Shown one piece after another: positions 23,605 to 42,173 of a stretch of DNA of 64,000 nucleotides. Position 1 is the first letter of the stretch. Every line of letters begins with the position of its first letter. Under the pieces are notes generated by a model. It ran no database searches. It saw only the letters and a program-made list of their open reading frames with translations, and was not told the DNA's origin. The position numbers and the translations under genes were made by a program. The stretch is from assembly GCA_963842085.1 (NCBI GenBank), contig CAWJET010000001.1:713565-777564 (forward strand), read 5' to 3'. The DNA is from an uncultured delta proteobacterium (GTDB taxonomy: Bacteria; Desulfobacterota; Binatia; Binatales; Binataceae).

Positions 23605-23979
23605 ATGAGATCGAAAATCGATGCGCAGTCGGATGGGGCGGAAAAGGCGGTACGCGACATAAGGCGGGCGACCCGCCGGCACTTCTCGGCTGAGGACAAG
23701 GTCCGGATCGTGATCGCCGGCCTGCGCGGCGAGGATAGCGTGGCCGAGTTGTGCCGCAAGGAAGGGATCAACCAGAACCTCTACTATCGCTGGTCCAAGG
23801 ACTTCCTGGAGGCGGGCAAGAGGCGGCTGGCCGGCGATACCGCGCGTGAAGCGACCAGCGATGAAGTCAAGGAGCTGCGGGCGGAGAGCCATCAGCTCAA
23901 GGAACTGCTGGCCGAACTGATGATGGAGAACCGCCTGCTCAAAAAAAGCGTGCTGGCGGATGGGGAGTCCGATATATGA
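23605..23979 (+). CDS. IS3 family transposase OrfA (HTH/leucine-zipper)
   Basis: 124 aa with typical IS3 OrfA (LYYRWSKDF..EVKELRAESHQLKELLAEL). Confidence 0.85.
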   Translation: MRSKIDAQSDGAEKAVRDIRRATRRHFSAEDKVRIVIAGLRGEDSVAELCRKEGINQNLYYRWSKDFLEAGKRRLAGDTAREATSDEVKELRAESHQLKELLAELMMENRLLKKSVLADGESDI

Positions 23980-24989
23980 GGTACGCGGCCGCCGAGAAGC
24001 TGGAGATCATCCGGCTGGTCGAGCAGTCGTCGCTGCCGGTGCGGCGCACCCTGGAGCAGATCGGCATCCCACGGTCCACCTTCTATTGCTGGTACGATCG
24101 CTATCGAACTCGCGATGATGAAGGGCTGGAGGATCGCACGCCGGCGCCGCGGCGGGTGTGGAACAAGCTCCCAGCTGCAGTTACTCAGGCCGTGCTCGAG
24201 CTTGCGCTCAAAGAACCGCAGCTATCGCCGCGGGAGTTGGCGGTCTCGTTCGTCGACCAGCAGCAGTACTTCGTCTCGGAAGCCTCAGTTTATCGGCTGC
24301 TGAAGGCGCACGACCTGATCACCAGCCCGGCCTTCATCTTGATGAAGGCAGCCGACAGCTTCGCCCATCCAACCACCGCACCCAATCAACTCTGGCAGAC
24401 CGACTTTACCTACCTGCGGGTGATCGGCTGGGGCTGGTTCTATCTGTCGACTGTCCTTGATGACTTCTCGCGCTATATCCTGGCCTGGAAGCTGTGTACC
24501 ACCATGACTGCCACCGATGTCTCCGACACCCTCGCGATGGCGCTGCGCAACTCCGGGTTGGAGCGCGTCCGCGTCCGGCACCGGCCGCGCCTGCTGAGCG
24601 ACAACGGACCGTCGTACGTGTCGGCCCAGCTTGGCTCCTGGCTCGCGGAGCATGGCATGATGCATACCCGCGGCAAGCCCTATCACCCGATGACCCAGGG
24701 TAAGATCGAACGTTACCATCGTTCGATGAAGAACCAGATCCTGCTCGAGAACTACTACCTGCCCGGTCAGCTCGAAGCGCGCCTGGCCGAGTTCGTCGAC
24801 TACTACAACTCGCGCCGCTACCACGAAAGTCTCAACAACCTGACCCCGGCCGACGTCTACTTCGGCCGAGGTCCCGCGATTCTGTCACGGAGGAAAAATG
24901 CCAAACTGAAAACCATCGAAGCCAGACGCCGGCTGCATCATTCGTTCGCAGCCAAAGGTTCAACTCAGATGGACCAGATCCTCTCTTAA
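23976..24989 (+). CDS. IS3 family transposase OrfB (DDE integrase core)
   Basis: 337 aa rve integrase domain (WQTDFTY...DNGPSYVS...HPMTQGKIERYHRS). In the -1 frame relative to orfA. Confidence 0.85.
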   Translation: MRYAAAEKLEIIRLVEQSSLPVRRTLEQIGIPRSTFYCWYDRYRTRDDEGLEDRTPAPRRVWNKLPAAVTQAVLELALKEPQLSPRELAVSFVDQQQYFVSEASVYRLLKAHDLITSPAFILMKAADSFAHPTTAPNQLWQTDFTYLRVIGWGWFYLSTVLDDFSRYILAWKLCTTMTATDVSDTLAMALRNSGLERVRVRHRPRLLSDNGPSYVSAQLGSWLAEHGMMHTRGKPYHPMTQGKIERYHRSMKNQILLENYYLPGQLEARLAEFVDYYNSRRYHESLNNLTPADVYFGRGPAILSRRKNAKLKTIEARRRLHHSFAAKGSTQMDQILS

Positions 24990-25029
24990 TTCCTGTGCCA
25001 ACTTGTCCAATAGGTTCTGACGACGTACA

Positions 25030-25401
25030 GCCGACGACAAGATAAAGGCGCTGTTGGGCGACAAGGCTTGGACCGAAATCATTAAGCTCCGTGACGCATA
25101 CACCAAGAGATACACACGACCCGGATTTGTAGCTACGACCGACGTCTTGGATTTCACGTATCTTGGACAACTCGGGCAACTTATCCTGGCCAATGATGCT
25201 TGGGATATGTTCAAGCCGCTGTTTGTCGATAAACGCCAATTGCAAGAGATTCTAAGAGACATTACCCCTGTGCGTAGCGACTCGGCTGCTCATTTCCGCA
25301 CCGTTCCGGAGCGAGAACTGACTCTCTGTAAGATCAGATGTTCGGATCTGTGCGGAATTTTAGAAAAGTTGCCTTTGGACCCGGAGGAAGAGCCCTCATA
25401 A
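25030..25401 (+). pseudogene. C-terminal fragment of a HEPN/abortive-infection-like protein, 5' end replaced by the IS
   Basis: Open frame starts at the IS right boundary (..ADDKIKALLGDKAWTEIIKLRDAYTKRY..VRSDSAAHF..) and has no start context. The Rx5H-like motif and LDFTYLGQLGQLI pattern suggest a HEPN-type domain. Family assignment is tentative. Confidence 0.3.
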
Positions 25402-33136: not shown

Positions 33137-33439
33137 ATGAGCAGGCAAGCAGCAGAAGTTGGACTGCCAGAGAGCGAATATCTGACTGTCCCTGAGATCG
33201 CGAAAATTCTTCGACGCAATCGAAAGACCGTGTATGGCTGGATCGAATCTGGTGGGATTGGGGAAGTGGACGGTCTTTTCGTCGTGCAAGGACGTTACTT
33301 GATCCACTGGCCGACATTCCGATCCAGGCAGTTCAAACCCCGCGTGAAACTGCGCGGTCAACTGCCGGAATACTCGGAGGAATCGCAAAATGGCATGGCT
33401 GGAAACGGACAGACACGGCCGCCTGAGAATCGGCTTTAA
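33137..33439 (+). CDS. excisionase/helix-turn-helix DNA-binding protein
   Basis: LTVPEIAKILRRNRKTVYGWIESG is the HTH_17/excisionase motif. Lies immediately upstream of, and overlapping, the integrase. Confidence 0.65.
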   Translation: MSRQAAEVGLPESEYLTVPEIAKILRRNRKTVYGWIESGGIGEVDGLFVVQGRYLIHWPTFRSRQFKPRVKLRGQLPEYSEESQNGMAGNGQTRPPENRL

Positions 33440-34658
33440 GTATTACGACGGCCTCAAATGTCGCGAGCCGCTCGGGGTGTCGGCAAACAAGCAGACCATC
33501 GCCGAGGCCAGGCGGCTTTGCGCGACGATACAGCTTGAGCTCAAGGCGAGAACTTTCGATTATGCCAAGCGATTTCCGGACAGCGACCGGATAAAGCAGC
33601 GCGGGATCGAGACGCCAGAGAAAATCCAACCGATCAGCGTCACTGAGCTCGCCGACAGTTGGCTGCTCAGCAAGCAAGGCGAGGTGAAGAAATCGACCCA
33701 CGGCTACTACAAAGAAGTCGCGGGGATCTTCATTCAGCGCGACGCAATCGGGACGAAAACGGTCTCGGAATTACGTCAGGAAGACATCGATCGCTGGCGC
33801 GTACGGGTCGACGAGAAACAAACCAAGGGCAACGAACCGCTGAGCACGCGGCGGAAGAACATGGCGTGGGATGTCCTGAATCAAATCCTGGAGTTCGCTC
33901 GCGTCCGGAAACTGCTCAACGAAGACCTCCTGCTCGGGATGAAGCCATTTAAGGATTCCGGCCAAGCAAACGACGACGATTCCGAACTCTCGGACGAGCC
34001 GGAAGATGCCGAAGTGATGCCGTATAACGCGGATCAGATTGAAGCGATCATCGCGGCGGCGGAGGGCTGGGAACGCGCTCTTGTAACGCTCTATTTCTTT
34101 ACCGGAATCCGACGCGGCGAAGCGCTCGCTCTGACTTGGGACAGGGTCTACCTCGATCGTGACCGGGCACTGATCAACCGCAGCCTCAGCGTCCGATATG
34201 GCATCACGACGCCGAAGACGAAGAGCAGCCGGCGCATGATCCAGTACGGTCCAAGGGTTCGCGCAGAGCTGTCGAAGCAAAGGGAAAGAGTCCAGCTACG
34301 CAGCAAGTACGTCTTCCCCAATGAGAGCGGCGCTGCGCCCAATGTACGCTGGGCGACTGACGTGGTCTGGCGCCGAATTCTCACGCGAGCTGAAGTTCCG
34401 CACAGACCAATCGGGCAGTGCCGTCACAGCTTCGCGGTCCTCGCGCTGAAGCAGCACAAACCGCTCAACTGGATTCAACGGCAGATGGGTCACCGCACGC
34501 TGCAAATGTTGTTGAAACATTACTGGCGCTGGATACCGACCGACGATCTTTCTGCGGAAGAAATGTCTTCGTTGGAGAGCGCAGCGGCGCCGTTGGCCTC
34601 AAATCATGCCCACCCTGTGCCCACCCGGCCCGAAACCGGGACCGAAGCGGGCTCGTAA
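33390..34658 (+). CDS. tyrosine-type site-specific integrase
   Basis: 422 aa. N-terminal arm-binding-like domain (LRIGFKYYDG), core-binding domain, and catalytic C-terminus (..HSFAVLALKQH..MGHRTLQMLLKHYWRW with the conserved R..HxxR..Y pattern). Its 3' end is 36 nt from the tRNA-Ser 3' end. Confidence 0.85.
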   Translation: MAWLETDRHGRLRIGFKYYDGLKCREPLGVSANKQTIAEARRLCATIQLELKARTFDYAKRFPDSDRIKQRGIETPEKIQPISVTELADSWLLSKQGEVKKSTHGYYKEVAGIFIQRDAIGTKTVSELRQEDIDRWRVRVDEKQTKGNEPLSTRRKNMAWDVLNQILEFARVRKLLNEDLLLGMKPFKDSGQANDDDSELSDEPEDAEVMPYNADQIEAIIAAAEGWERALVTLYFFTGIRRGEALALTWDRVYLDRDRALINRSLSVRYGITTPKTKSSRRMIQYGPRVRAELSKQRERVQLRSKYVFPNESGAAPNVRWATDVVWRRILTRAEVPHRPIGQCRHSFAVLALKQHKPLNWIQRQMGHRTLQMLLKHYWRWIPTDDLSAEEMSSLESAAAPLASNHAHPVPTRPETGTEAGS

Positions 34659-34693
34659 AACAATGATTCAGATCGGGAAAAACCCAATAAAAC

Positions 34694-34785
<92 letters not shown>

Positions 34786-35093: not shown

Positions 35094-35894
35094 ATGGAAC
35101 CAATCGCATACGTCGCGCGCCTGAACGAGTTCTATCGAAGTCAGGGATTTCCTGTGTACCAGTGGACGATCAATGAAAGCGCGCCGCTCACTCCGCTGAA
35201 AAAGTCGTTGGCTGGTTGCCGGGTGGCGATGCTCACGTCGGGCGGAGTCTCGCGCAAGGATACGCCACCGTTCAATCCCCAGGCGCGCAACGATTTGAGA
35301 CTCGACGCCGTCGACAAGGAAACCTCGCCCCAGTTCTTCGCCATCAACGACGACTACTACAATCACCGCGACGCGGACCGGGACATCAACTGCATTTTCC
35401 CGATCGAGCGACTCCGCGAGTTGCAATCCGAGGGCTTGATCGGTGAAGTCGGGCCGCATCATTACAGCGGCTTTATGGGGCGCATCTACACCCGCAGTGC
35501 GGTGGTGAACGAGGCCGCGCCGGCGCTGGCGCGGCGGCTGCGGGATGAGAGAATCGACGCGTTCGTCCTGGTGCCCGCTTGACCGCTCGATCACCAGACC
35601 GTTGGTCTGGTAGCGAGGGTGGTAGAGGAAGCAGGCATCCCGACCGTTGTAGTCTCGACCGGCCGCGATCTGAGCGCCCAGGTTAGACCGCCGCGCACGG
35701 TTTTCGTCAATTTCCCGATGGGAAATCCGTTCGGCAAACCATTCGATAAAGGTCAGCAGCGCAAGATTCTGCTCGACGCGCTGCACGCACTTGAATCGGT
35801 GAAGACCGGCGGCGGAATTATTGATCTCCCATATGAGTGGGGCAAGGAATTCGCAATGAACCTGGGTTCCGGCTATCGCGCGAAGAGCGCGTAG
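35094..35894 (+). CDS. PrdB/GrdB-family selenoprotein (D-proline/glycine reductase selenoprotein B-like); in-frame TGA (Sec) at 35580..35582
   Basis: ORFs 35094..35582 and 35619..35894 share one frame with only the TGA between them. ..DINCIFPIERLRELQSEGLIGEVGPHHYSGFMG..RIDAFVLVPA-U-PLDHQTVGLVARVVEEAGIPTVVV..IDLPYEW parallels PrdB around its Sec (..AVLLTAGUGTC..EEAGIPT..). A hairpin ACCAGACC-gtt-GGTCTGGT starts 10 nt after the TGA. Confidence 0.75.
35593..35611 (+). promoter_or_regulatory. SECIS-like stem-loop downstream of the PrdB-like UGA
   Basis: Perfect 8-bp stem ACCAGACC/GGTCTGGT with a GTT loop, 10 nt 3' of TGA 35580..35582. Confidence 0.55.
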
Positions 35895-35902
35895 GAGTTT
35901 TT

Positions 35903-36307
35903 GTGACGGTGAAGCTCAAGAAGACGCTCAGGCAAATGCTGGCGGAAGCAAATGCGGAGATAGAGACGGTTAGTGCCGCGGACGCGATCAAGCTCAAAGG
36001 TGATTCGGACCTGGTATTCGTGGACATCCGGGATATCCGCGAGCTTGAACGCGACGGCCGGATTCCAGGCGCGTTTCACGCACCGCGCGGGATGCTCGAA
36101 TTCTGGGTCGATCCCGAGAGTCCGTACCACAAGGAGATCTTCGCCTCGGGCAAAAAATTCATCTTCTTCTGAGCGGGCGGAGGCAGATCTGCGCTGGCAG
36201 CGCAGACCCTTCAGCGCATGGGACTCGCACCGGTCTGTCACATGGGCGGCGGCTTTACGGCATGGAAAGCGGCTGGCGGACCGGTGGAGGGTGGAAAAGT
36301 CTCGTGA
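35903..36307 (+). CDS. single-domain rhodanese sulfurtransferase with selenocysteine (TGA 36170..36172) in place of the catalytic Cys
   Basis: GTG start with RBS AGGAG. ..KKFIFF-U-AGGGRSALAAQTLQRMGLAPVCHMGGGFTAWKAAG places the TGA exactly at the CxxGxR active-site Cys of rhodanese. The frame continues 44 codons to TGA at 36305..36307. Palindrome CTGCGCTGGCAGCGCAG follows 16 nt downstream. Confidence 0.8.
36189..36205 (+). promoter_or_regulatory. SECIS-like stem-loop downstream of the rhodanese UGA
   Basis: CTGCGCT-GGC-AGCGCAG (7-bp stem, G-rich loop) 16 nt 3' of TGA 36170..36172. Confidence 0.5.
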
Positions 36308-36383
36308 TGGATAAGGGCTTCGCTTACTGTCTCTCGGGCTCGAATTCGAGAAAATACTGGTAGGTTGATTTGCGCGCCCGCTA

Positions 36384-37028
36384 TCATGCGCGGCGCGCGA
36401 CGAGCGCGTAATGATATTTGAACAAGCGCTCGCCTTCGATCCGCAAACCCATACGCTCCATCCGATCACGCGCTTCGGCAGCGGTGTAAACATGATCCCT
36501 TGGAGGACCCACCGGCCGTTCGACGCCGGCGTTCCAGTCAACTACGAGCACGGTTCCGGCCGGCTTGAGCAGGGCAACCATCGCACGCAGCGCGTCATCG
36601 CCGAGCTCATGCAGGACGTTGAGCGCGAGCACGCGATCGGCCGTTCCATTCAGCTTCTTAATTTCATCGGTATGAAGCGCTTTAAGATTTGAGAGCTTTT
36701 GTGCCGCAGGCTTCGCCCGCAACAGCTCGAGCATCTGCTGCTGTTCGTCGAGTGCAGTCACCTCCAGGTCGGGCCGCGATCGCGCGAGCTCGATCGCGTA
36801 GGTTCCGATGCCCGTGCCGAAATCCACGACACGGCTGCCGGTCGGCGCCGCCAGCATCTCGAAGATCTCATCGGGCGGCAGGTACCCGAAGCGAAATGGG
36901 TCGTCGAGCAGCGCCGCCCGGGCCGGGTCGAAGCGCTCGGGCTGACGGGCGCCATGCCGATCGTCATCGCCATGTGCGCCGTGGCGATGGCTGCCGTGAT
37001 GGTGCGAGTCGTGCTGATTTTTTTCCAT
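36384..37028 (-). CDS. class I SAM-dependent methyltransferase with His-rich N-terminal extension
   Basis: Motif I VVDFGTGIGTYA, motif post-I LDEQQQM, motif II-like DRVLALNVLHEL, KPAG. N-terminal HDSHHHGSHRHGAHGDDDRHG metal-binding-like tract. Start at MEKNQ (37028) has a GGAGGG RBS. Confidence 0.75.
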   Translation of the reverse strand: MEKNQHDSHHHGSHRHGAHGDDDRHGARQPERFDPARAALLDDPFRFGYLPPDEIFEMLAAPTGSRVVDFGTGIGTYAIELARSRPDLEVTALDEQQQMLELLRAKPAAQKLSNLKALHTDEIKKLNGTADRVLALNVLHELGDDALRAMVALLKPAGTVLVVDWNAGVERPVGPPRDHVYTAAEARDRMERMGLRIEGERLFKYHYALVARRA

Positions 37029-37164: not shown

Positions 37165-37716
37165 TCAGATTGAGCCTCCATCTATTCGCTCAATGCGACC
37201 GCGGCGAACATGCCGCACCAGTGGCGGCGACGTTCTGCCCAGCCGTTGCAAAATTCTTGGCTCGCTAATTTTTTCGGCGCAGAAGCCGCGAACGTATTGA
37301 ACCAGCGCCACGATCTGGTCGTAGCCCAACGTTCCGCCAAAGGCCGGCATTCCGGCCGGAAACCCCGCCGCCGCGGCGCCATCCTTGATAACCAGGAATA
37401 TGGTCGCGTCGGACATCATCGACATCCAGCCACAATCCGTAAAACTACGGAGATGAACTTGCAATTGCGGAGCCTCGGGGCCGTCGCCCTGACCCGAACG
37501 GCCGTGGCAGTGTGCACATTGGCTCTGGTAGAGGGTCTGCGCCGTGAGAGGATGCGCCGCATCAGGATTGAGATCGGCGGCTCTGGCGCCGGCGGTTAGG
37601 CTCAACAACGGAAGCGCCGCGACCAAGGTGCGGATGTACCCTGGTCTATGAGCTTTGGGCGGCGCTTTAGCTCGACCTGGTGCGAAGCTCAGTGTATTTG
37701 CAGCGTTCTCAGCCAC
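37165..37716 (-). CDS. c-type cytochrome (mono-haem, CxxCH)
   Basis: Signal peptide then QSQCAHCHG haem-binding motif, and a Met-rich segment (GWMSMMS) as candidate distal ligand. Confidence 0.7.
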   Translation of the reverse strand: MAENAANTLSFAPGRAKAPPKAHRPGYIRTLVAALPLLSLTAGARAADLNPDAAHPLTAQTLYQSQCAHCHGRSGQGDGPEAPQLQVHLRSFTDCGWMSMMSDATIFLVIKDGAAAAGFPAGMPAFGGTLGYDQIVALVQYVRGFCAEKISEPRILQRLGRTSPPLVRHVRRGRIERIDGGSI

Positions 37717-38273
37717 GCCACAAGATCTTCGAGTTGCTTACGATCGAGGACCCCGGAGAACGCAGGCATTGTGCGGCGACCGCGCATCACAATCTCTTGA
37801 AAGTCATTGAACCTATAGAGGATCGGCTGCTGAACGAGGTTCGGTCCTTGTTTACCGCGCGCGTCAGCTCCGTGGCATTCAGCGCAGGCGTTAGTGAAGA
37901 CGCCCGCGCCGGCGCGTGCGTCTCCATGGAATCTGACGGGGTCCGCCAGCGGCTCGACGGAATCCAACAGGGCAACGCTGGGCGATTCAGGCGCAGCCAT
38001 CGGCACGGCTCCGAGCGGAAACTGGCTGGACAGATAATCAGCCAGCGACTTTTCCTGATCGGCAGGGAGCGGTGCTCCCCAGTTCCGCATTTTTTTGACC
38101 TCTGCTTGCCACTGCTCGGGTGTCAGTCTCTGCTGGATCATCATTCCCCGGTCATGGCAGATCTCGCAGTGATCTCGCATTTCAGCCGCTTCGGCCCGCT
38201 GCGCTGCGCTCCCGGCCGTTCCGGCCAGCACACGGGTCGAGAGCAGAAGCAACGCTGGGACTACGAGCCACAT
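37689..38273 (-). CDS. dihaem c-type cytochrome
   Basis: Two CxxCH motifs (CEICH, CAECH). Internal start MWLVVPALLLLSTRVLAG serves as signal peptide. The ORF-track N-terminus overlaps the SorA-like gene and is rejected. Confidence 0.7.
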   Translation of the reverse strand: MWLVVPALLLLSTRVLAGTAGSAAQRAEAAEMRDHCEICHDRGMMIQQRLTPEQWQAEVKKMRNWGAPLPADQEKSLADYLSSQFPLGAVPMAAPESPSVALLDSVEPLADPVRFHGDARAGAGVFTNACAECHGADARGKQGPNLVQQPILYRFNDFQEIVMRGRRTMPAFSGVLDRKQLEDLVAWLRTLQIH

Positions 38274-38356
38274 TCGCCGCGGAAGGCTCGCCCACTGGAA
38301 TGAACGATGGTTCCCAGCTGCACGTTCTCGCATCGCGATTCGAATGAGCGCTGCCA

Positions 38357-39532
38357 TCAGGCGATCCTGCAATGAACTCGATCGATGCCGTTCCACAAAT
38401 AGCCGCCATGATTCCAAGGCGTCGTTTCCGGCTGCACTCTGCCTGAGGAATCGGTGGCGCGCGCGGCGATTGTATACGCTCCTTGCGTCGCCGCTTTCCA
38501 CCGATAACGCCACAGTTGCCATGCGCCCTCAGATTCCTTGCCCTCAAGTTCGGCGCGAGCCCACGAGCGGCCGCCATCCAGCGACACTTCGACGTTGACC
38601 ACGTGTCCCATGCCGGTAAAAGCTACTCCCGAGACCAGGTTGTCGCCGGGCGGCATGACCGAACCTTCCAACGGCCTTGCAATCAACGATTTGACCGGGT
38701 TGATGGCGACCGGAACTTCAGGCGCGGGTGCGATGCCTTTTTGCGGAACTGGTTGCTGCGGCATCCTGTACGCAGTCTGCATGTAGAAGCCCTCGGCCTC
38801 ATGCTCCTGAAAGTCGATTCGGCGCAACCATTTGTACCAGTGATCGCCGGCCCAGCCCGGTACCACCATGCGGAGCGGGCCACCATGCAACATCGGCAGC
38901 GGCTCGCCGTTCATTTCGAAGGCAAGCAGCGTGCCCGGATCGAGTGCGCGCTCGATGGGAATGCTGCGGGTAAACGAAGGAGTTGTGGGCATGGGAGCGG
39001 AGTCATAGCCGCGCATCTGCATGTGACCGGCGCCGGGTTTGATGCCTATGCTCTTCACTACGTCGCGCAGGCGGACCCCTGTCCACAGAGCGTTGCCAAC
39101 CGCGCCGCGCTGCCACTGGACGCCCGGCACTGACGGATGAAAAAAGGCGCGCCCGTTGCCTGCGCATTGAAGCGTTGCCGGCAAGCGCACGATTTCGAAC
39201 TTGCGCAGGTCCTCGAGGGTCAGGCTGCGAGAGCTATCGACGAGGCCGCCAATCTCGAGTCTCCATTGTTCTTGAATGATAGCGGGTGGGCCAAAATGAC
39301 TTCGCACGAAAAACACCGCATTGGGAGTAATCGAGGAAGCCAGATACTCGACCGGCGTCTCCAAGTCCTGCGGCCGGGAAAGCCGAACAATCAGTGAGTC
39401 GTGCTCATGCACCATTTCAGCAGCGCGACCGATTGCCGGCATGCCGCTCACCAACGCCAGAGCACCCACACTCCGCGAAAGATGCCTGAGAAATCGGCGT
39501 CGCGACCACAACTCAGTGGATAATCGGCTCAC
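38357..39532 (-). CDS. sulfite-oxidase-family molybdopterin oxidoreductase (SorA-like sulfite dehydrogenase catalytic subunit), TAT-exported
   Basis: Twin-arginine motif SRRRFLRHL. Moco-binding region ..FFVRSHFGPP..LQCAGNGRAFF.. and C-terminal dimerisation/Ig-like domain. Confidence 0.8.
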   Translation of the reverse strand: MSRLSTELWSRRRFLRHLSRSVGALALVSGMPAIGRAAEMVHEHDSLIVRLSRPQDLETPVEYLASSITPNAVFFVRSHFGPPAIIQEQWRLEIGGLVDSSRSLTLEDLRKFEIVRLPATLQCAGNGRAFFHPSVPGVQWQRGAVGNALWTGVRLRDVVKSIGIKPGAGHMQMRGYDSAPMPTTPSFTRSIPIERALDPGTLLAFEMNGEPLPMLHGGPLRMVVPGWAGDHWYKWLRRIDFQEHEAEGFYMQTAYRMPQQPVPQKGIAPAPEVPVAINPVKSLIARPLEGSVMPPGDNLVSGVAFTGMGHVVNVEVSLDGGRSWARAELEGKESEGAWQLWRYRWKAATQGAYTIAARATDSSGRVQPETTPWNHGGYLWNGIDRVHCRIA

Positions 39533-39644
39533 TTCACACCTCCGCCAATATAAAGGATATGTGGCAGGTTTTCATCGCGAATGATCAGGAGCCATGAGTG
39601 CCAATGGTCACAACCAACGACCTCGCGCACTGCTTCCGCTTCGG

Positions 39645-40691
39645 CTAACCAATCCATCCGAGCAGTATGGCGCCAAGCGTGGCGGTTCCCATCAGCAGCC
39701 AAAGAACGAAGCCCTGGATTAGGGGGCGCCGCCCAACCATCTGAAGGGCGCTGCGGCTCAGCCCGGAGCCGATCAGAAACAAGGTGACCACCAACGAACG
39801 TTGCGCGCCGAGGAATATCGTGTGGCCAGCGGGTTTCAGCGCAGGTACCCATGTCACCAATGCTGCGGCGGCGATAAATCCCAGGATGAACCACGGCCGC
39901 CTGGCCTTGCCCGCAGGCGCGTCTGGGTTTCCGCGGTTCCAAACCATTCCGACGGCGAGGGTCACGGGCACTATCCAAAGCGCTCGGGTAAGTTTGATGG
40001 TGGTAGCGATCTCAAGCGCGCGTGCGCCGTATTGCATCGCCGCTCCGACTACTGAGCTCGTATCGTGAATGGCAAGCGCGCTCCACACTCCAAACTGTGC
40101 CTGACTCAAACCGAAATAGTGCCCGATCCACGGAAAGATGAACAAGGCGACCGCGTTGAGGAAGAACACTGTCGCCAGCGCCACGGAAACCTCATGACTT
40201 TTGGCTCGGATCGCGGGAGCGACCGCCGCGATGGCGCTGCCGCCGCATATTGCCGTACCTACGGTTACCAGCAGCGAGGTGTCCCGTTCGGTCCGAATCA
40301 ATCGGCCCAAAACCAGACCAAGGGTCATCGTGAGTGTGATGCCGATGACCGTGTAAAAGAAGCCATGGACACCGGCGTGCCCTACTTCAACGAGATTCAT
40401 GCCGGCCCCCAGACCGATGACCGAGATTTGCAGCAAGGGAGTGATCAGCCGCGCGGTGGTAAAGGGATAACCATTGCCCAAAGTGAGGGCCACGCAGATG
40501 CCCAGCATCAGCGCGATGCCGGGCGAGACGAACGGCAACAGCGTCGCGCATGCCGCGATTGGAAACGCGATGCGGGCAGCGACCGTCGCGGGATTGGCGC
40601 GGCTGAACTCATGGCGCCAGCCAGCCGGCGCCGCTGGGACGAAATCCTCCTTCGGTTTCGTGGCCTCCGACGTGCGCATCGCGCCGGTCAT
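39645..40691 (-). CDS. YeiH-family (UPF0324) putative sulfate/sulfite exporter
   Basis: Polytopic membrane protein with the YeiH pattern (..LLQISVIGLGAGMNL..TAICGGSAIAAVAP..). Start at MTGAMRTS overlaps the ArsR stop by ATGA. Confidence 0.7.
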   Translation of the reverse strand: MTGAMRTSEATKPKEDFVPAAPAGWRHEFSRANPATVAARIAFPIAACATLLPFVSPGIALMLGICVALTLGNGYPFTTARLITPLLQISVIGLGAGMNLVEVGHAGVHGFFYTVIGITLTMTLGLVLGRLIRTERDTSLLVTVGTAICGGSAIAAVAPAIRAKSHEVSVALATVFFLNAVALFIFPWIGHYFGLSQAQFGVWSALAIHDTSSVVGAAMQYGARALEIATTIKLTRALWIVPVTLAVGMVWNRGNPDAPAGKARRPWFILGFIAAAALVTWVPALKPAGHTIFLGAQRSLVVTLFLIGSGLSRSALQMVGRRPLIQGFVLWLLMGTATLGAILLGWIG

Positions 40692-41056
40692 GCTCGCACG
40701 CGAGCGGGGAGCGCTCCGACCTGCGCTTCGAGCCGGTCGCGCAGTCTCGCGCAGACCATTTCGCACAACTCGAAGACCATTTCGTCGGCGATCGAATAGA
40801 AGGCGCTGTTGCCTTCGGGTCTTCGTCTCACCAGTCCGGAATCCTGCAGAATCCGCAGGTGCTTGCTGACGTTGGGCTGCGTCGAGCCGACGCTTTGGGC
40901 GAGCGCGGAAACCGAGCGCTCGCCCTGCTCGAGTTCGTGCAGGATGCGCAGGCGCAGCGGTTCGCCCATCGCCCTGAAGCGTGCTGCCACCATCTCCAGC
41001 GCTTGCGGGGTCAAGGCGCGCCGCGACTTTGGCCTGAAGCCGTTTCTTGCCTTCAT
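40688..41056 (-). CDS. ArsR/SmtB-family transcriptional regulator (BigR/SqrR-like candidate persulfide sensor)
   Basis: HTH ..LRLRILHELEQGERSVSALAQSVGSTQPNVSKHLRILQDSGLV.. with C-terminal CEMVC. Lies divergent from the PDO-rhodanese gene and co-transcribed with yeiH-like. An alternative start at MVAARF is possible. Confidence 0.75.
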   Translation of the reverse strand: MKARNGFRPKSRRALTPQALEMVAARFRAMGEPLRLRILHELEQGERSVSALAQSVGSTQPNVSKHLRILQDSGLVRRRPEGNSAFYSIADEMVFELCEMVCARLRDRLEAQVGALPARVRA

Positions 41057-41135
41057 GAGTAAATAGTTATATATCGACCTGGTCTCGAGTCAAACGCGGC
41101 GCCGCCGGTTTCATTCCGGCGCAAGGAAAAGCCCC

Positions 41136-42173
41136 ATGTTCTTTCGAGAATTGAACCGTGGAAAGTGCAAAACCTACATGCTCGGATGCGAGCGCACGCG
41201 GCGCGCCGCGGTGGTGGACCCGCTCAAAGAAAACACCGCACGCTACATCGCGATCGCCGCGTATCGTGGCTTCCGGCTGGATTATGCGATCGACACGCAC
41301 ACCCACGCCGACCATCGCAGCGGCACCTGGGACCTCGCCGGATTAACCGACGCGAAGGTCGTAATGGATCGCCACGCCCCCGCGCCTAACGTCGACGTCC
41401 ACGTTTCAAACAGCGATGTTCTCGAGGTCGGCGACCTGCGCGTGAAGTTCATGTTCACGCCCGGGCACACGCCCGACGGAATCAGCCTCTACGTCGACGG
41501 GCACGTGCTGACCGGCGACACCTTGTTGATTGGCGGCACCGGGCGAGCGGACTTTCCCGGTGGCGACGCCGGAAAACAATACGACGCGATCACCGGCCTG
41601 CTGTTCAAACTGCCGGACGACACGCTCGTGTTTCCCGCGCACGACTATCGCGGTAATCGGTGCTCGACGATCGGAAAGGAGAAAGCCACTAATCCGCGGG
41701 TTGCCGGGCATACACGCGACGAATACATCAGCATCATGAATAATCTCGGCCTGCCGCTGCCCGACAAGATTCAGGAGGCACTGCAGGCCAATCAAACCGC
41801 GATCGAAGACGACTCCCTCAAATTCCCCGATGTCGCGCAGCTGAGCAGCGTTCATCAGGCAAGCGTTCCCGAATTGCGGGACCGCCTCGCCGGCGGGAAC
41901 CCGCCGATCGTGCTCGACGTACGCGAACCAGACGAATACCACGATGAACTTGGGCACATTCCGGGCAGTAGATCGATCCCGCTGAGAGCTTTGCCGAGTG
42001 AAGCGGGCAAACTCGAGAACCTGAAACACAGCGACATCGTAGTCGTGTGCCGCGCCGGCGTACGCAGCAGCACCGCCGCCGCGATCCTCACCGCACTCGG
42101 TTTCGAACACGTGACCAACCTCAAGGGCGGGATGCTCGAATGGAACGAGGCCGGCCTGCCGGTGGAGCGCTAA
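41136..42173 (+). CDS. persulfide dioxygenase (MBL-fold, ETHE1/Blh-like) fused to a C-terminal rhodanese domain
   Basis: THTHADH metal-binding motif and glyoxalase-II-like fold, then a rhodanese domain with VVVCRAGVRS active-site loop. Confidence 0.85.
   Translation: MFFRELNRGKCKTYMLGCERTRRAAVVDPLKENTARYIAIAAYRGFRLDYAIDTHTHADHRSGTWDLAGLTDAKVVMDRHAPAPNVDVHVSNSDVLEVGDLRVKFMFTPGHTPDGISLYVDGHVLTGDTLLIGGTGRADFPGGDAGKQYDAITGLLFKLPDDTLVFPAHDYRGNRCSTIGKEKATNPRVAGHTRDEYISIMNNLGLPLPDKIQEALQANQTAIEDDSLKFPDVAQLSSVHQASVPELRDRLAGGNPPIVLDVREPDEYHDELGHIPGSRSIPLRALPSEAGKLENLKHSDIVVVCRAGVRSSTAAAILTALGFEHVTNLKGGMLEWNEAGLPVER

Follow-up and report, generated by a model that had tools for sequence, protein, structure and literature searches.

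A PrdB-like gene and a rhodanese gene side by side in Binatia, each very probably encoding a selenoprotein

PrdB is the selenoprotein subunit of the clostridial D-proline reductase (Kabisch et al. 1999, cited in PMC1088965). Since 2005, proteins labelled 'proline reductase PrdB' have ranked among the most abundant selenoprotein families of marine metagenomes (PMC1088965, PMC2398784, PMC9312934, PMC13188914). The Sargasso Sea and Global Ocean Sampling (GOS) papers give their motif as UxxC, with U for selenocysteine (Sec), and assume that they function in proline reduction (PMC1088965, PMC2398784). Rhodaneses with Sec in a UxxG motif were first reported in PMC1088965 and stand in current catalogues (table in PMC13188914). 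Moreover, several operons with selenoprotein genes have been described, namely grdA-grdB, prdB-prdC, Prx/SelW-like, SAO and Tso (PMC13188914). Here we report on two adjacent genes, a PrdB-like gene (gene 1) and a rhodanese gene (gene 2), in a stretch of 64,000 nucleotides (nt) from an uncultured member of the Binatia (GCA_963842085.1, contig CAWJET010000001.1, positions 713,565 to 777,564; 'the window' in the following). Both genes are interrupted by one in-frame TGA, which is very probably recoded as Sec. Related loci are cited by our own numbers with the prefix L.

Gene 1 extends on the plus strand from an ATG at 35094 to a TAG at 35892-35894. Among its 267 codons there is only one internal stop, the TGA at 35580-35582. 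Read as Sec (codon 163), it gives a protein of the GRDB superfamily with 266 amino acids (aa). An earlier note on this DNA had claimed that two adjacent plus-strand frames each contain a single in-frame TGA and that family-specific sequence continues across it, which is borne out by the Pfam and NCBIfam matches of the joined frames. Joined gene 1 scores 34.5 bits against Pfam GRDB (PF07355; E 1.8e-8, gathering threshold 22) with a match to residues 30-160 only. The NCBIfam PrdB model TIGR04483 covers residues 29-250 with 148 bits (E 3e-43) at a cut-off of 300, and TIGR01918 (glycine/betaine/sarcosine/D-proline reductase selenoprotein B) reaches 50.1 bits at a cut-off of 65.45. In a protein search all full-length homologues (266-269 aa, 55-79% identical) had a Cys at the TGA site, within the motif P-[AG]-C-P-L-D-H-Q-T. 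The nearest relatives (80-91% identical) are annotated as proteins of 162 aa which end exactly at ...VLVPA; therefore, the same TGA is present there. The closest genome locus was found on a metagenome-assembled genome (MAG) chromosome of a 'delta proteobacterium'. Chromosome OY970324.1 (L007) encodes a PrdB-like protein 90% identical to the gene 1 product, and the window protein recurs unchanged in assembly GCA_049581305.1. A genome scan with gene 1, restricted to one genome per species, yielded 80 loci. Among all fetched loci the codon in question is TGA in 70 distinct sequences and TGC or TGT in 12. The hosts of these sequences comprise Binatia, delta-, gamma- and alphaproteobacteria, Acidimicrobiia, a Fonsibacter (SAR11) MAG, Spirochaetales, Phycisphaerae and others.

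Gene 2 (35903-36307, plus strand) starts with a GTG, which follows the TAG of gene 1 at a distance of 8 nt. Its ribosome-binding site AGGAG (35893-35897) lies 5 nt upstream of the GTG and overlaps the stop codon of gene 1. The gene encodes a single-domain rhodanese of 134 aa with a predicted Sec at codon 90 (TGA at 36170-36172), which is the sole internal stop; the real stop is the TGA at 36305-36307. Joined gene 2 matches Pfam Rhodanese (PF00581) with 66.2 bits (E 3.8e-18, threshold 22.2) over residues 24-124. Thus, both joined translations exceed the thresholds of the Pfam models proposed for them in the earlier note, and both TGAs align to Cys in homologues. It had also been claimed that the second TGA replaces the catalytic Cys of the rhodanese. 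Accordingly, 16 of 16 aligned homologues carry the catalytic Cys of F-F-C-A-G-G-x-R-S at this position, and the U of the window loop U-A-G-G-G-R occupies the Cys column of the six-residue C-x4-R active-site loop. A search with the joined rhodanese returned thousands of full-length Cys homologues, several of them from organisms named Candidatus Binataceae. A metagenome scan added 80 loci, and in total 21 distinct TGA forms and 35 Cys forms were collected. Two assignments to named rhodanese groups were rejected: the NF041203 (LYCAU or CxU) form, as gene 2 has the motif FF-U-AGG and scores 35.4 bits at a cut-off of 115, and TsoB.

The simplest alternative is that both TGAs are real stops, so that the genes would be pseudogenes, assembly errors or naturally split genes giving separate polypeptides. 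This is how public gene callers treat them: in L001-L006 gene 1 is split into pieces of 162 aa and 91-93 aa (162 aa and 91 aa for gene 1 of the window) and the rhodanese appears as a fragment of 89 aa, while in GCA_049581305.1 the rhodanese frame is uncalled and an open reading frame of 123 aa in another frame is called over the region. However, independent assemblies contain the TGA at the identical codon in 70 (gene 1) and 21 (gene 2) distinct sequences, the frames are intact and conserved on either side of it, and neither half of a split rhodanese would have the catalytic residue. Together with the conserved, TGA-specific hairpin that each TGA carries (see below), this makes real stops extremely improbable, even though the window showed no Sec machinery. 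Since public annotation splits or truncates both genes, the two putative selenoproteins are invisible in current records.

Downstream of each TGA we identified a hairpin that resembles a bacterial selenocysteine insertion sequence (bSECIS). In gene 1 the upper hairpin (35593-35611, plus strand) consists of a perfect 8-base-pair (bp) stem, ACCAGACC/GGUCUGGU, closed by a GUU loop at 35601-35603. It starts 10 nt after the TGA, as had been described before. A weaker lower stem pairs 35582-35588 with 35617-35623, and together with this lower stem the structure folds with -23.8 kcal/mol (z = -2.87). The hairpin of the rhodanese (36188-36206, plus strand) reads UCUGCGCU/GGC/AGCGCAGA, that is 8 bp with a 3-nt loop. 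Here the earlier note was right about a hairpin with a G-containing loop, but the start lies 15 nt and not 16 nt after the TGA, and the description with 8 bp and a GGC loop is better than the equivalent one with 7 bp and a UGGCA loop.

The strongest evidence for both elements comes from the comparison of TGA and Cys forms. Every TGA-form PrdB-like gene carries CAC-CAG-ACC-GUN-GGU-CUG-GU after the UGA, which folds as ACCAGACC/GUN/GGUCUGGU. All eight pairs of this stem are formed in 62 of the 70 sequences with TGA, compared to one of the 12 with Cys (Mann-Whitney p = 1e-10), and the Gly codon within the hairpin is GGT in 70/70 and 1/12, respectively. In an alignment of 68 sequences the upper helix is 96.6% paired. 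One of its pairs shows G-U, and a compensatory double change from G-C to A-U was found at one stem pair in L070 and L084. When the partner columns were slid, pairing fell to 25-42%, compared to 87% in register. With no more than 75% pairing, the lower helix provides weak evidence. The loop codon (codon 170, 35601-35603) is GUN (Val) in all 70 TGA forms and GCN (Ala) in 11 of 12 Cys forms. Therefore, the RNA element would dictate even the amino acid: the G and U of the SECIS loop seem to fix the residue at codon 170, and this constraint seems to relax after Sec has been lost.

The rhodanese shows the same pattern with a different element. All 21 TGA forms carry UCU-GCG-CUG-GCA-GCG-CAG-A, i.e. 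UCUGCGCU/GGC/AGCGCAGA, and the stem is fully paired (8/8) in 20 of 21 TGA forms compared to 1 of 35 Cys forms (p = 3e-10), with L032 as the exception. The Ser codon is TCT in 20/21 versus 1/35 and the GCA codon is present in 21/21 versus 3/35, while the Gly and Arg codons just 5' of the hairpin vary freely, as do neighbouring synonymous sites. The rhodanese in L032 (L032:6827) has TGT (Cys), but its SECIS hairpin is perfect, both TCT and GCA are retained, and the PrdB-like gene upstream of it still has TGA. It is probably a very recent Sec-to-Cys replacement. As proposed in the earlier note, the hairpins are thus SECIS-like and tied to the TGA state across homologues. The comparison shows that both putative elements have the anatomy of a bacterial SECIS and are kept nearly exclusively where the codon is UGA.

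Because the TGAs align to Cys, are conserved as TGA in orthologues, are followed by TGA-specific hairpins and lie in conserved frames, we consider it very likely that genes 1 and 2 encode two genuine selenoproteins in which UGA is recoded as Sec. In line with established bacterial Sec decoding, SelB-GTP-Sec-tRNA(Sec) would bind the loop of the hairpin and insert Sec at the UGA, and at the real UGA stop of the rhodanese, which has no such hairpin, translation would terminate. Several observations weigh against this reading. The folding energy of hairpin 2 alone is not unusual (z = -0.42). Folding energy therefore supports hairpin 1 and not hairpin 2, so that we relied on comparative codon analysis instead, and the significance of hairpin 2 is drawn from the comparative data only. 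True covariation is sparse. Since the stems are almost invariant, the support for the hairpins consists mostly of synonymous-site conservation and of the contrast with Cys forms. No Rfam model matched the region at the gathering or E <= 1 thresholds, and Rfam holds no bacterial SECIS model. Moreover, selA, selB, selD and tRNA-Sec were not found in the window, where ARAGORN and Rfam detected only a tRNA-Ser, and there was no sel gene in the Pfam-annotated gene lists covering about 0-59 kb of it. In 1.36 Mb of related loci, where the search was limited to these two targets, no tRNA-Sec was detected by ARAGORN and no SelD by one tblastn search with an E. coli query. A scan of the window for other TGA-interrupted genes, based on GC content at third codon positions, gave shadow-frame noise only; it also missed both known genes.

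In-frame TGAs would also be expected if UGA had been reassigned throughout the genome and encoded Trp, Gly or another standard amino acid, and beyond the TGAs themselves nothing points in this direction. The in-frame TGAs align to Cys only, and the rhodanese gene and the methyltransferase gene downstream of it end in TGA. As TGA is the genuine stop of the rhodanese gene, a genome-wide reassignment cannot explain the in-frame TGAs, and we give this possibility practically no weight. Hence, recoding of both UGAs as Sec is the reading that we follow below.

What the PrdB-like selenoprotein does is a separate question. Annotated prdB genes with 35-38% identity to gene 1 were found by a tblastn search of plasmid records in Terrisporobacter, Enterococcus, Ligilactobacillus and Peptoclostridium acidaminophilum. 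Their translations contain one TGA each, in ...LTAG-U-GTCHR..., and the TGA of gene 1 (...LVPA-U-PLDHQ...) shares an alignment column with the TGA of three annotated prdB genes. Therefore, the Sec position is homologous, as had been suggested. The likeness to PrdB (TIGR04483) extends over nearly the whole length and includes the size class (about 240-266 aa) and the shared motifs DIN(C)xFP, GFMG, EEAGIPT, PR and PxG. In an AlphaFold2 model of the PrdB-like protein (pLDDT, the predicted local distance difference test, 94) the Sec is placed where a beta-strand ends and a helix begins, as in PrdB. However, the gene 1 family has U-P-L-D in place of the redox motif U-x-x-C (U-G-T-C in PrdB), so that an Asp replaces the resolving Cys at +3, and SGFMGRxY in place of GFMGGGG. 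The absence of the partner Cys had been noticed earlier, but its place is +3, with two residues intervening, and not two residues downstream. Since the +3 Cys is absent, the PrdB-like family constitutes a distinct subfamily, which agrees with the suggestion made at that time.

Cys100 (D-I-N-C) is invariant in 54 members of the PrdB-like family and is an Ala or Ser in two of three PrdBs; therefore, it is a candidate replacement for the lost Cys at +3. A more distant member of the family on plasmid p546-2 of Roseomonas haemaphysalidis (L173, 3968-6353) has C-P-V-C, a CxxC motif, at the Sec position. This gene adjoins a convergent selO gene, which encodes the protein adenylyltransferase SelO.

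As gene 1 is homologous to prdB over its full length (TIGR04483, E 3e-43) and its Sec occupies the PrdB column, it could encode a true subunit of an amino-acid reductase of the D-proline or glycine type whose pyruvoyl partner is encoded elsewhere, and metagenome surveys have labelled such sequences accordingly (PMC1088965, PMC2398784). Nevertheless, the score is half of the model cut-off and the resolving Cys is replaced. In both fully annotated loci with a genuine prdB (L174, L175) prdA lies just upstream, and the Enterococcus locus also contains prdC, prdD and a gene of the proline racemase family. In contrast, no PrdA, PrdC, PrdD or GrdA-type gene was found in the annotated neighbourhoods of the PrdB-like family (L001-L006, L169), which lacks prdA and prdC-F neighbours and occurs in aerobic soil and marine lineages. 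The host also encodes a cytochrome c oxidase, which is atypical for Stickland fermenters. A reductase subunit of this type is thus very unlikely. Because of U-P-L-D, the lacking PrdA neighbour and the low score, the comparison shows that the predicted gene 1 product is a full-length PrdB homologue with Sec at the PrdB position, yet not PrdB. A literature search for a function of 'PrdB-like' or 'GrdB-like' proteins returned only unrelated papers on Synergistota.

A lead to the function may come from the neighbouring genes. Judged by spacing and orientation, the two genes form a putative two-gene operon in the genome of a soil member of the Binatia (Binatota). Both genes lie side by side in one direction in 21 distinct Binatia loci, 18 of which are Sec/Sec, two Cys/Cys (L030, L169) and one Sec/Cys (L032); as these loci are mutually related, they do not count as independent events. 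At least two unrelated contexts of the pair were observed. The type found in the window adjoins sulfur-oxidation genes, and the L006/L169 type has genes for glucose-6-phosphate dehydrogenase, fructose-1,6-bisphosphatase and glucokinase on one side, with an inosine monophosphate (IMP) dehydrogenase gene downstream in L006.

On the minus strand, convergent with the pair, lies the gene at 36384-37028. It was correctly recognized in the earlier note as encoding a His-rich S-adenosylmethionine (SAM) methyltransferase. The enzyme belongs to class I, is His-rich at the N-terminus and contains a PVGPP motif. Such a gene is a recurrent neighbour of the pair. A homologue was found within 1.5 kb downstream of it on either strand in 14 loci, a number from which near-duplicates are not yet removed. 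The pair-linked methyltransferases fall into two subtypes with 28% mutual identity and the common motif D-x-x-x-x-x-P-V-G-P-P. In the Cys/Cys locus L169 the PrdB-like, rhodanese and methyltransferase genes all point in one direction and are separated by 14 and 3 nt. The best named matches of the methyltransferase were weak and below threshold, to arsenite methyltransferase families. The rhodanese and methyltransferase genes converge on a spacer of 76 nt, in which we observed a perfect 12-nt palindrome, CTCGAATTCGAG (36339-36350), which may be a shared terminator stem, although it does not have the features that the terminator scan looks for. A scan for promoters and terminators gave nothing above shuffled expectation.

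When the neighbours of the 80 PrdB-like loci were clustered, no universal partner emerged. The best one was an O-methyltransferase (PF00891 with a dimerisation domain), encoded within a few kb of the PrdB-like gene in 14 loci that are phylogenetically distant, one of them from a SAR11 relative (L024, L026, L040, L043, L046, L055, L058, L063, L067, L070, L071, L073, L077 and L081). This is a second, independent link of the PrdB-like family to methyltransferases.

A selenium-dependent module for sulfur/selenium trafficking or reduction had been suggested in the earlier note as a possible role of the pair. Rhodanese persulfides and perselenides are established chemistry. In our model, the rhodanese selenolate would bind sulfane sulfur or selenium to form a Se-S(e)- adduct, and the PrdB-like protein would resolve or reduce this adduct with Sec163 as the nucleophile and Cys100 in place of the lost Cys at +3. 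The SAM methyltransferase would then methylate the released chalcogenide. Such a module for the reduction and methylation of sulfane sulfur or selenium is possible, but we propose it tentatively and with low confidence. The near-exclusive pairing of Sec with Sec and Cys with Cys would suit a direct exchange between both active sites. A more far-reaching version, in which the trio constitutes an undescribed selenium-dependent pathway where the Sec of the rhodanese hands sulfane sulfur or selenium on to that of the PrdB-like protein (direct Se-Se or Se-S exchange), followed by reductive release and methylation, is rather improbable. If it were true, the abundant environmental 'PrdB' of soil Binatia, SAR11 relatives and marine gammaproteobacteria would consist of chalcogen-handling enzymes and not of proline reductases.

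These functional proposals have to be weighed against the possibility that both proteins are real selenoproteins but functionally independent, i.e. generic redox or antioxidant proteins that are chance neighbours in some Binatia. The pairing is not obligatory: many PrdB-like genes of Binatia, and most of the 80 genome loci, have no rhodanese beside them, and among the Sec-rhodaneses with sufficient sequence upstream at least four have no PrdB-like gene (L089, L091, L098, L109), that of L091 being located near YeeE/YedE-like genes. The rhodanese subfamily is also very common alone, next to other genes such as those for glutathione S-transferase, TetR and enoyl-CoA hydratase. Besides, the sulfur-oxidation neighbourhood of the window is absent in L006 and L169, and a comparison of the PrdB-like model with solved structures gave no match beyond a generic Rossmann-like fold. 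On the other hand, the spacing is tight and operon-like in the window (8 nt) and in L169 (14 nt), the arrangement is kept in differing genomic contexts, and the Sec and Cys states of both genes are correlated in the related loci. Independence of the two proteins is an unlikely alternative.

To the right of the methyltransferase gene, 37165-42173 holds a cluster for sulfur oxidation or detoxification, in which all named equivalog matches are below their cut-offs. It encodes two cytochromes c, a SorA-like molybdenum sulfite dehydrogenase (305 bits, cut-off 600), a membrane protein of the YeiH family, an ArsR/BigR-like regulator and a Blh-like fusion of persulfide dioxygenase and rhodanese. Beyond this fusion follow a protein of 576 aa with no family match and a resistance-nodulation-division (RND) efflux system. 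These sulfur-oxidation neighbours fit the sulfane-sulfur theme. Directly left of the pair, beside a tRNA-Ser(GCT) gene, lies a tyrosine integrase gene (33390-34785; 422 aa, Arm-DNA-bind_2 and Phage_integrase). L004, whose 162-aa N-terminal PrdB-like product is identical, has neither the tRNA gene nor the integrase. The locus without the integrase points to a variable element that was integrated at the 3' end of the tRNA gene. An insertion-sequence-type transposase (rve and HTH_Tnp_1) at about 23976-25400 is known from the gene list of an identical ENA contig (L168, 6687-8071).

Regarding the RNA elements, the gene 1 loop has G22-U23 when the U of UGA is position 1, which is close to G23-U24 of the SECIS of E. 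coli fdhF. Like the fdhF-type SECIS, the window hairpins are located in the coding region about 10-15 nt after the UGA and carry a G in their small apical loop (general features in PMC1088965). They differ in that their loops, to which SelB would bind, are only 3 nt long and that no bulged U is evident.

The earlier note assumed too high a novelty, as selenoproteins of both kinds, 'PrdB' and rhodanese, have had their place in catalogues from the Sargasso Sea and GOS surveys onwards (PMC1088965, PMC2398784, PMC13188914). Since both families are long-known selenoproteins, the recoding itself is ordinary and the novelty is modest. The rhodanese corresponds by motif to the rhodanese-like selenoprotein forms 2 and 4 (UxxG; PMC13188914), which likewise have a single PF00581 domain with Sec at the catalytic Cys and U-A-G-G, and it differs from the catalogued Sec-rhodaneses in being operonic with a second selenoprotein gene. 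The 'PrdB' of the Sargasso Sea and GOS surveys resembles gene 1 as an abundant selenoprotein of the PF07355 type with many Sec forms in aerobic environmental bacteria. In our genome scan the U-P-L-D type was also present in a SAR11 relative, Pseudomonadales and similar groups. Judged by their descriptions, the two are probably the same family, although the listed motif is UxxC whereas the gene 1 family has UPLD and no PrdA.

Given UPLD instead of UxxC and no PrdA, the label of a proline reductase is unsupported. By motif, partner genes and model score the widespread environmental 'PrdB' would not qualify as a D-proline reductase, which makes the function assumed for 20 years doubtful. What appears to be undescribed is the UPLD subfamily without PrdA and its operon with a Sec-rhodanese and a methyltransferase in Binatia. 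For this uncultured soil phylum, one full-text literature search found no selenoprotein study. The pair thus provides a clean, comparatively validated case of two putatively co-transcribed selenoprotein genes in Binatia. Its recurrent Sec- or Cys-rhodanese and SAM methyltransferase partners are a testable lead to the function of the PrdB-like protein, and the matched Sec/Sec and Cys/Cys operons represent a natural experiment on why Sec is retained. The combination of a PrdB-like gene with a rhodanese gene (and a methyltransferase gene) is not among the selenoprotein operons listed in PMC13188914, but it shares with them the likely co-transcription of two Sec-encoding genes, which implies a shared pathway.

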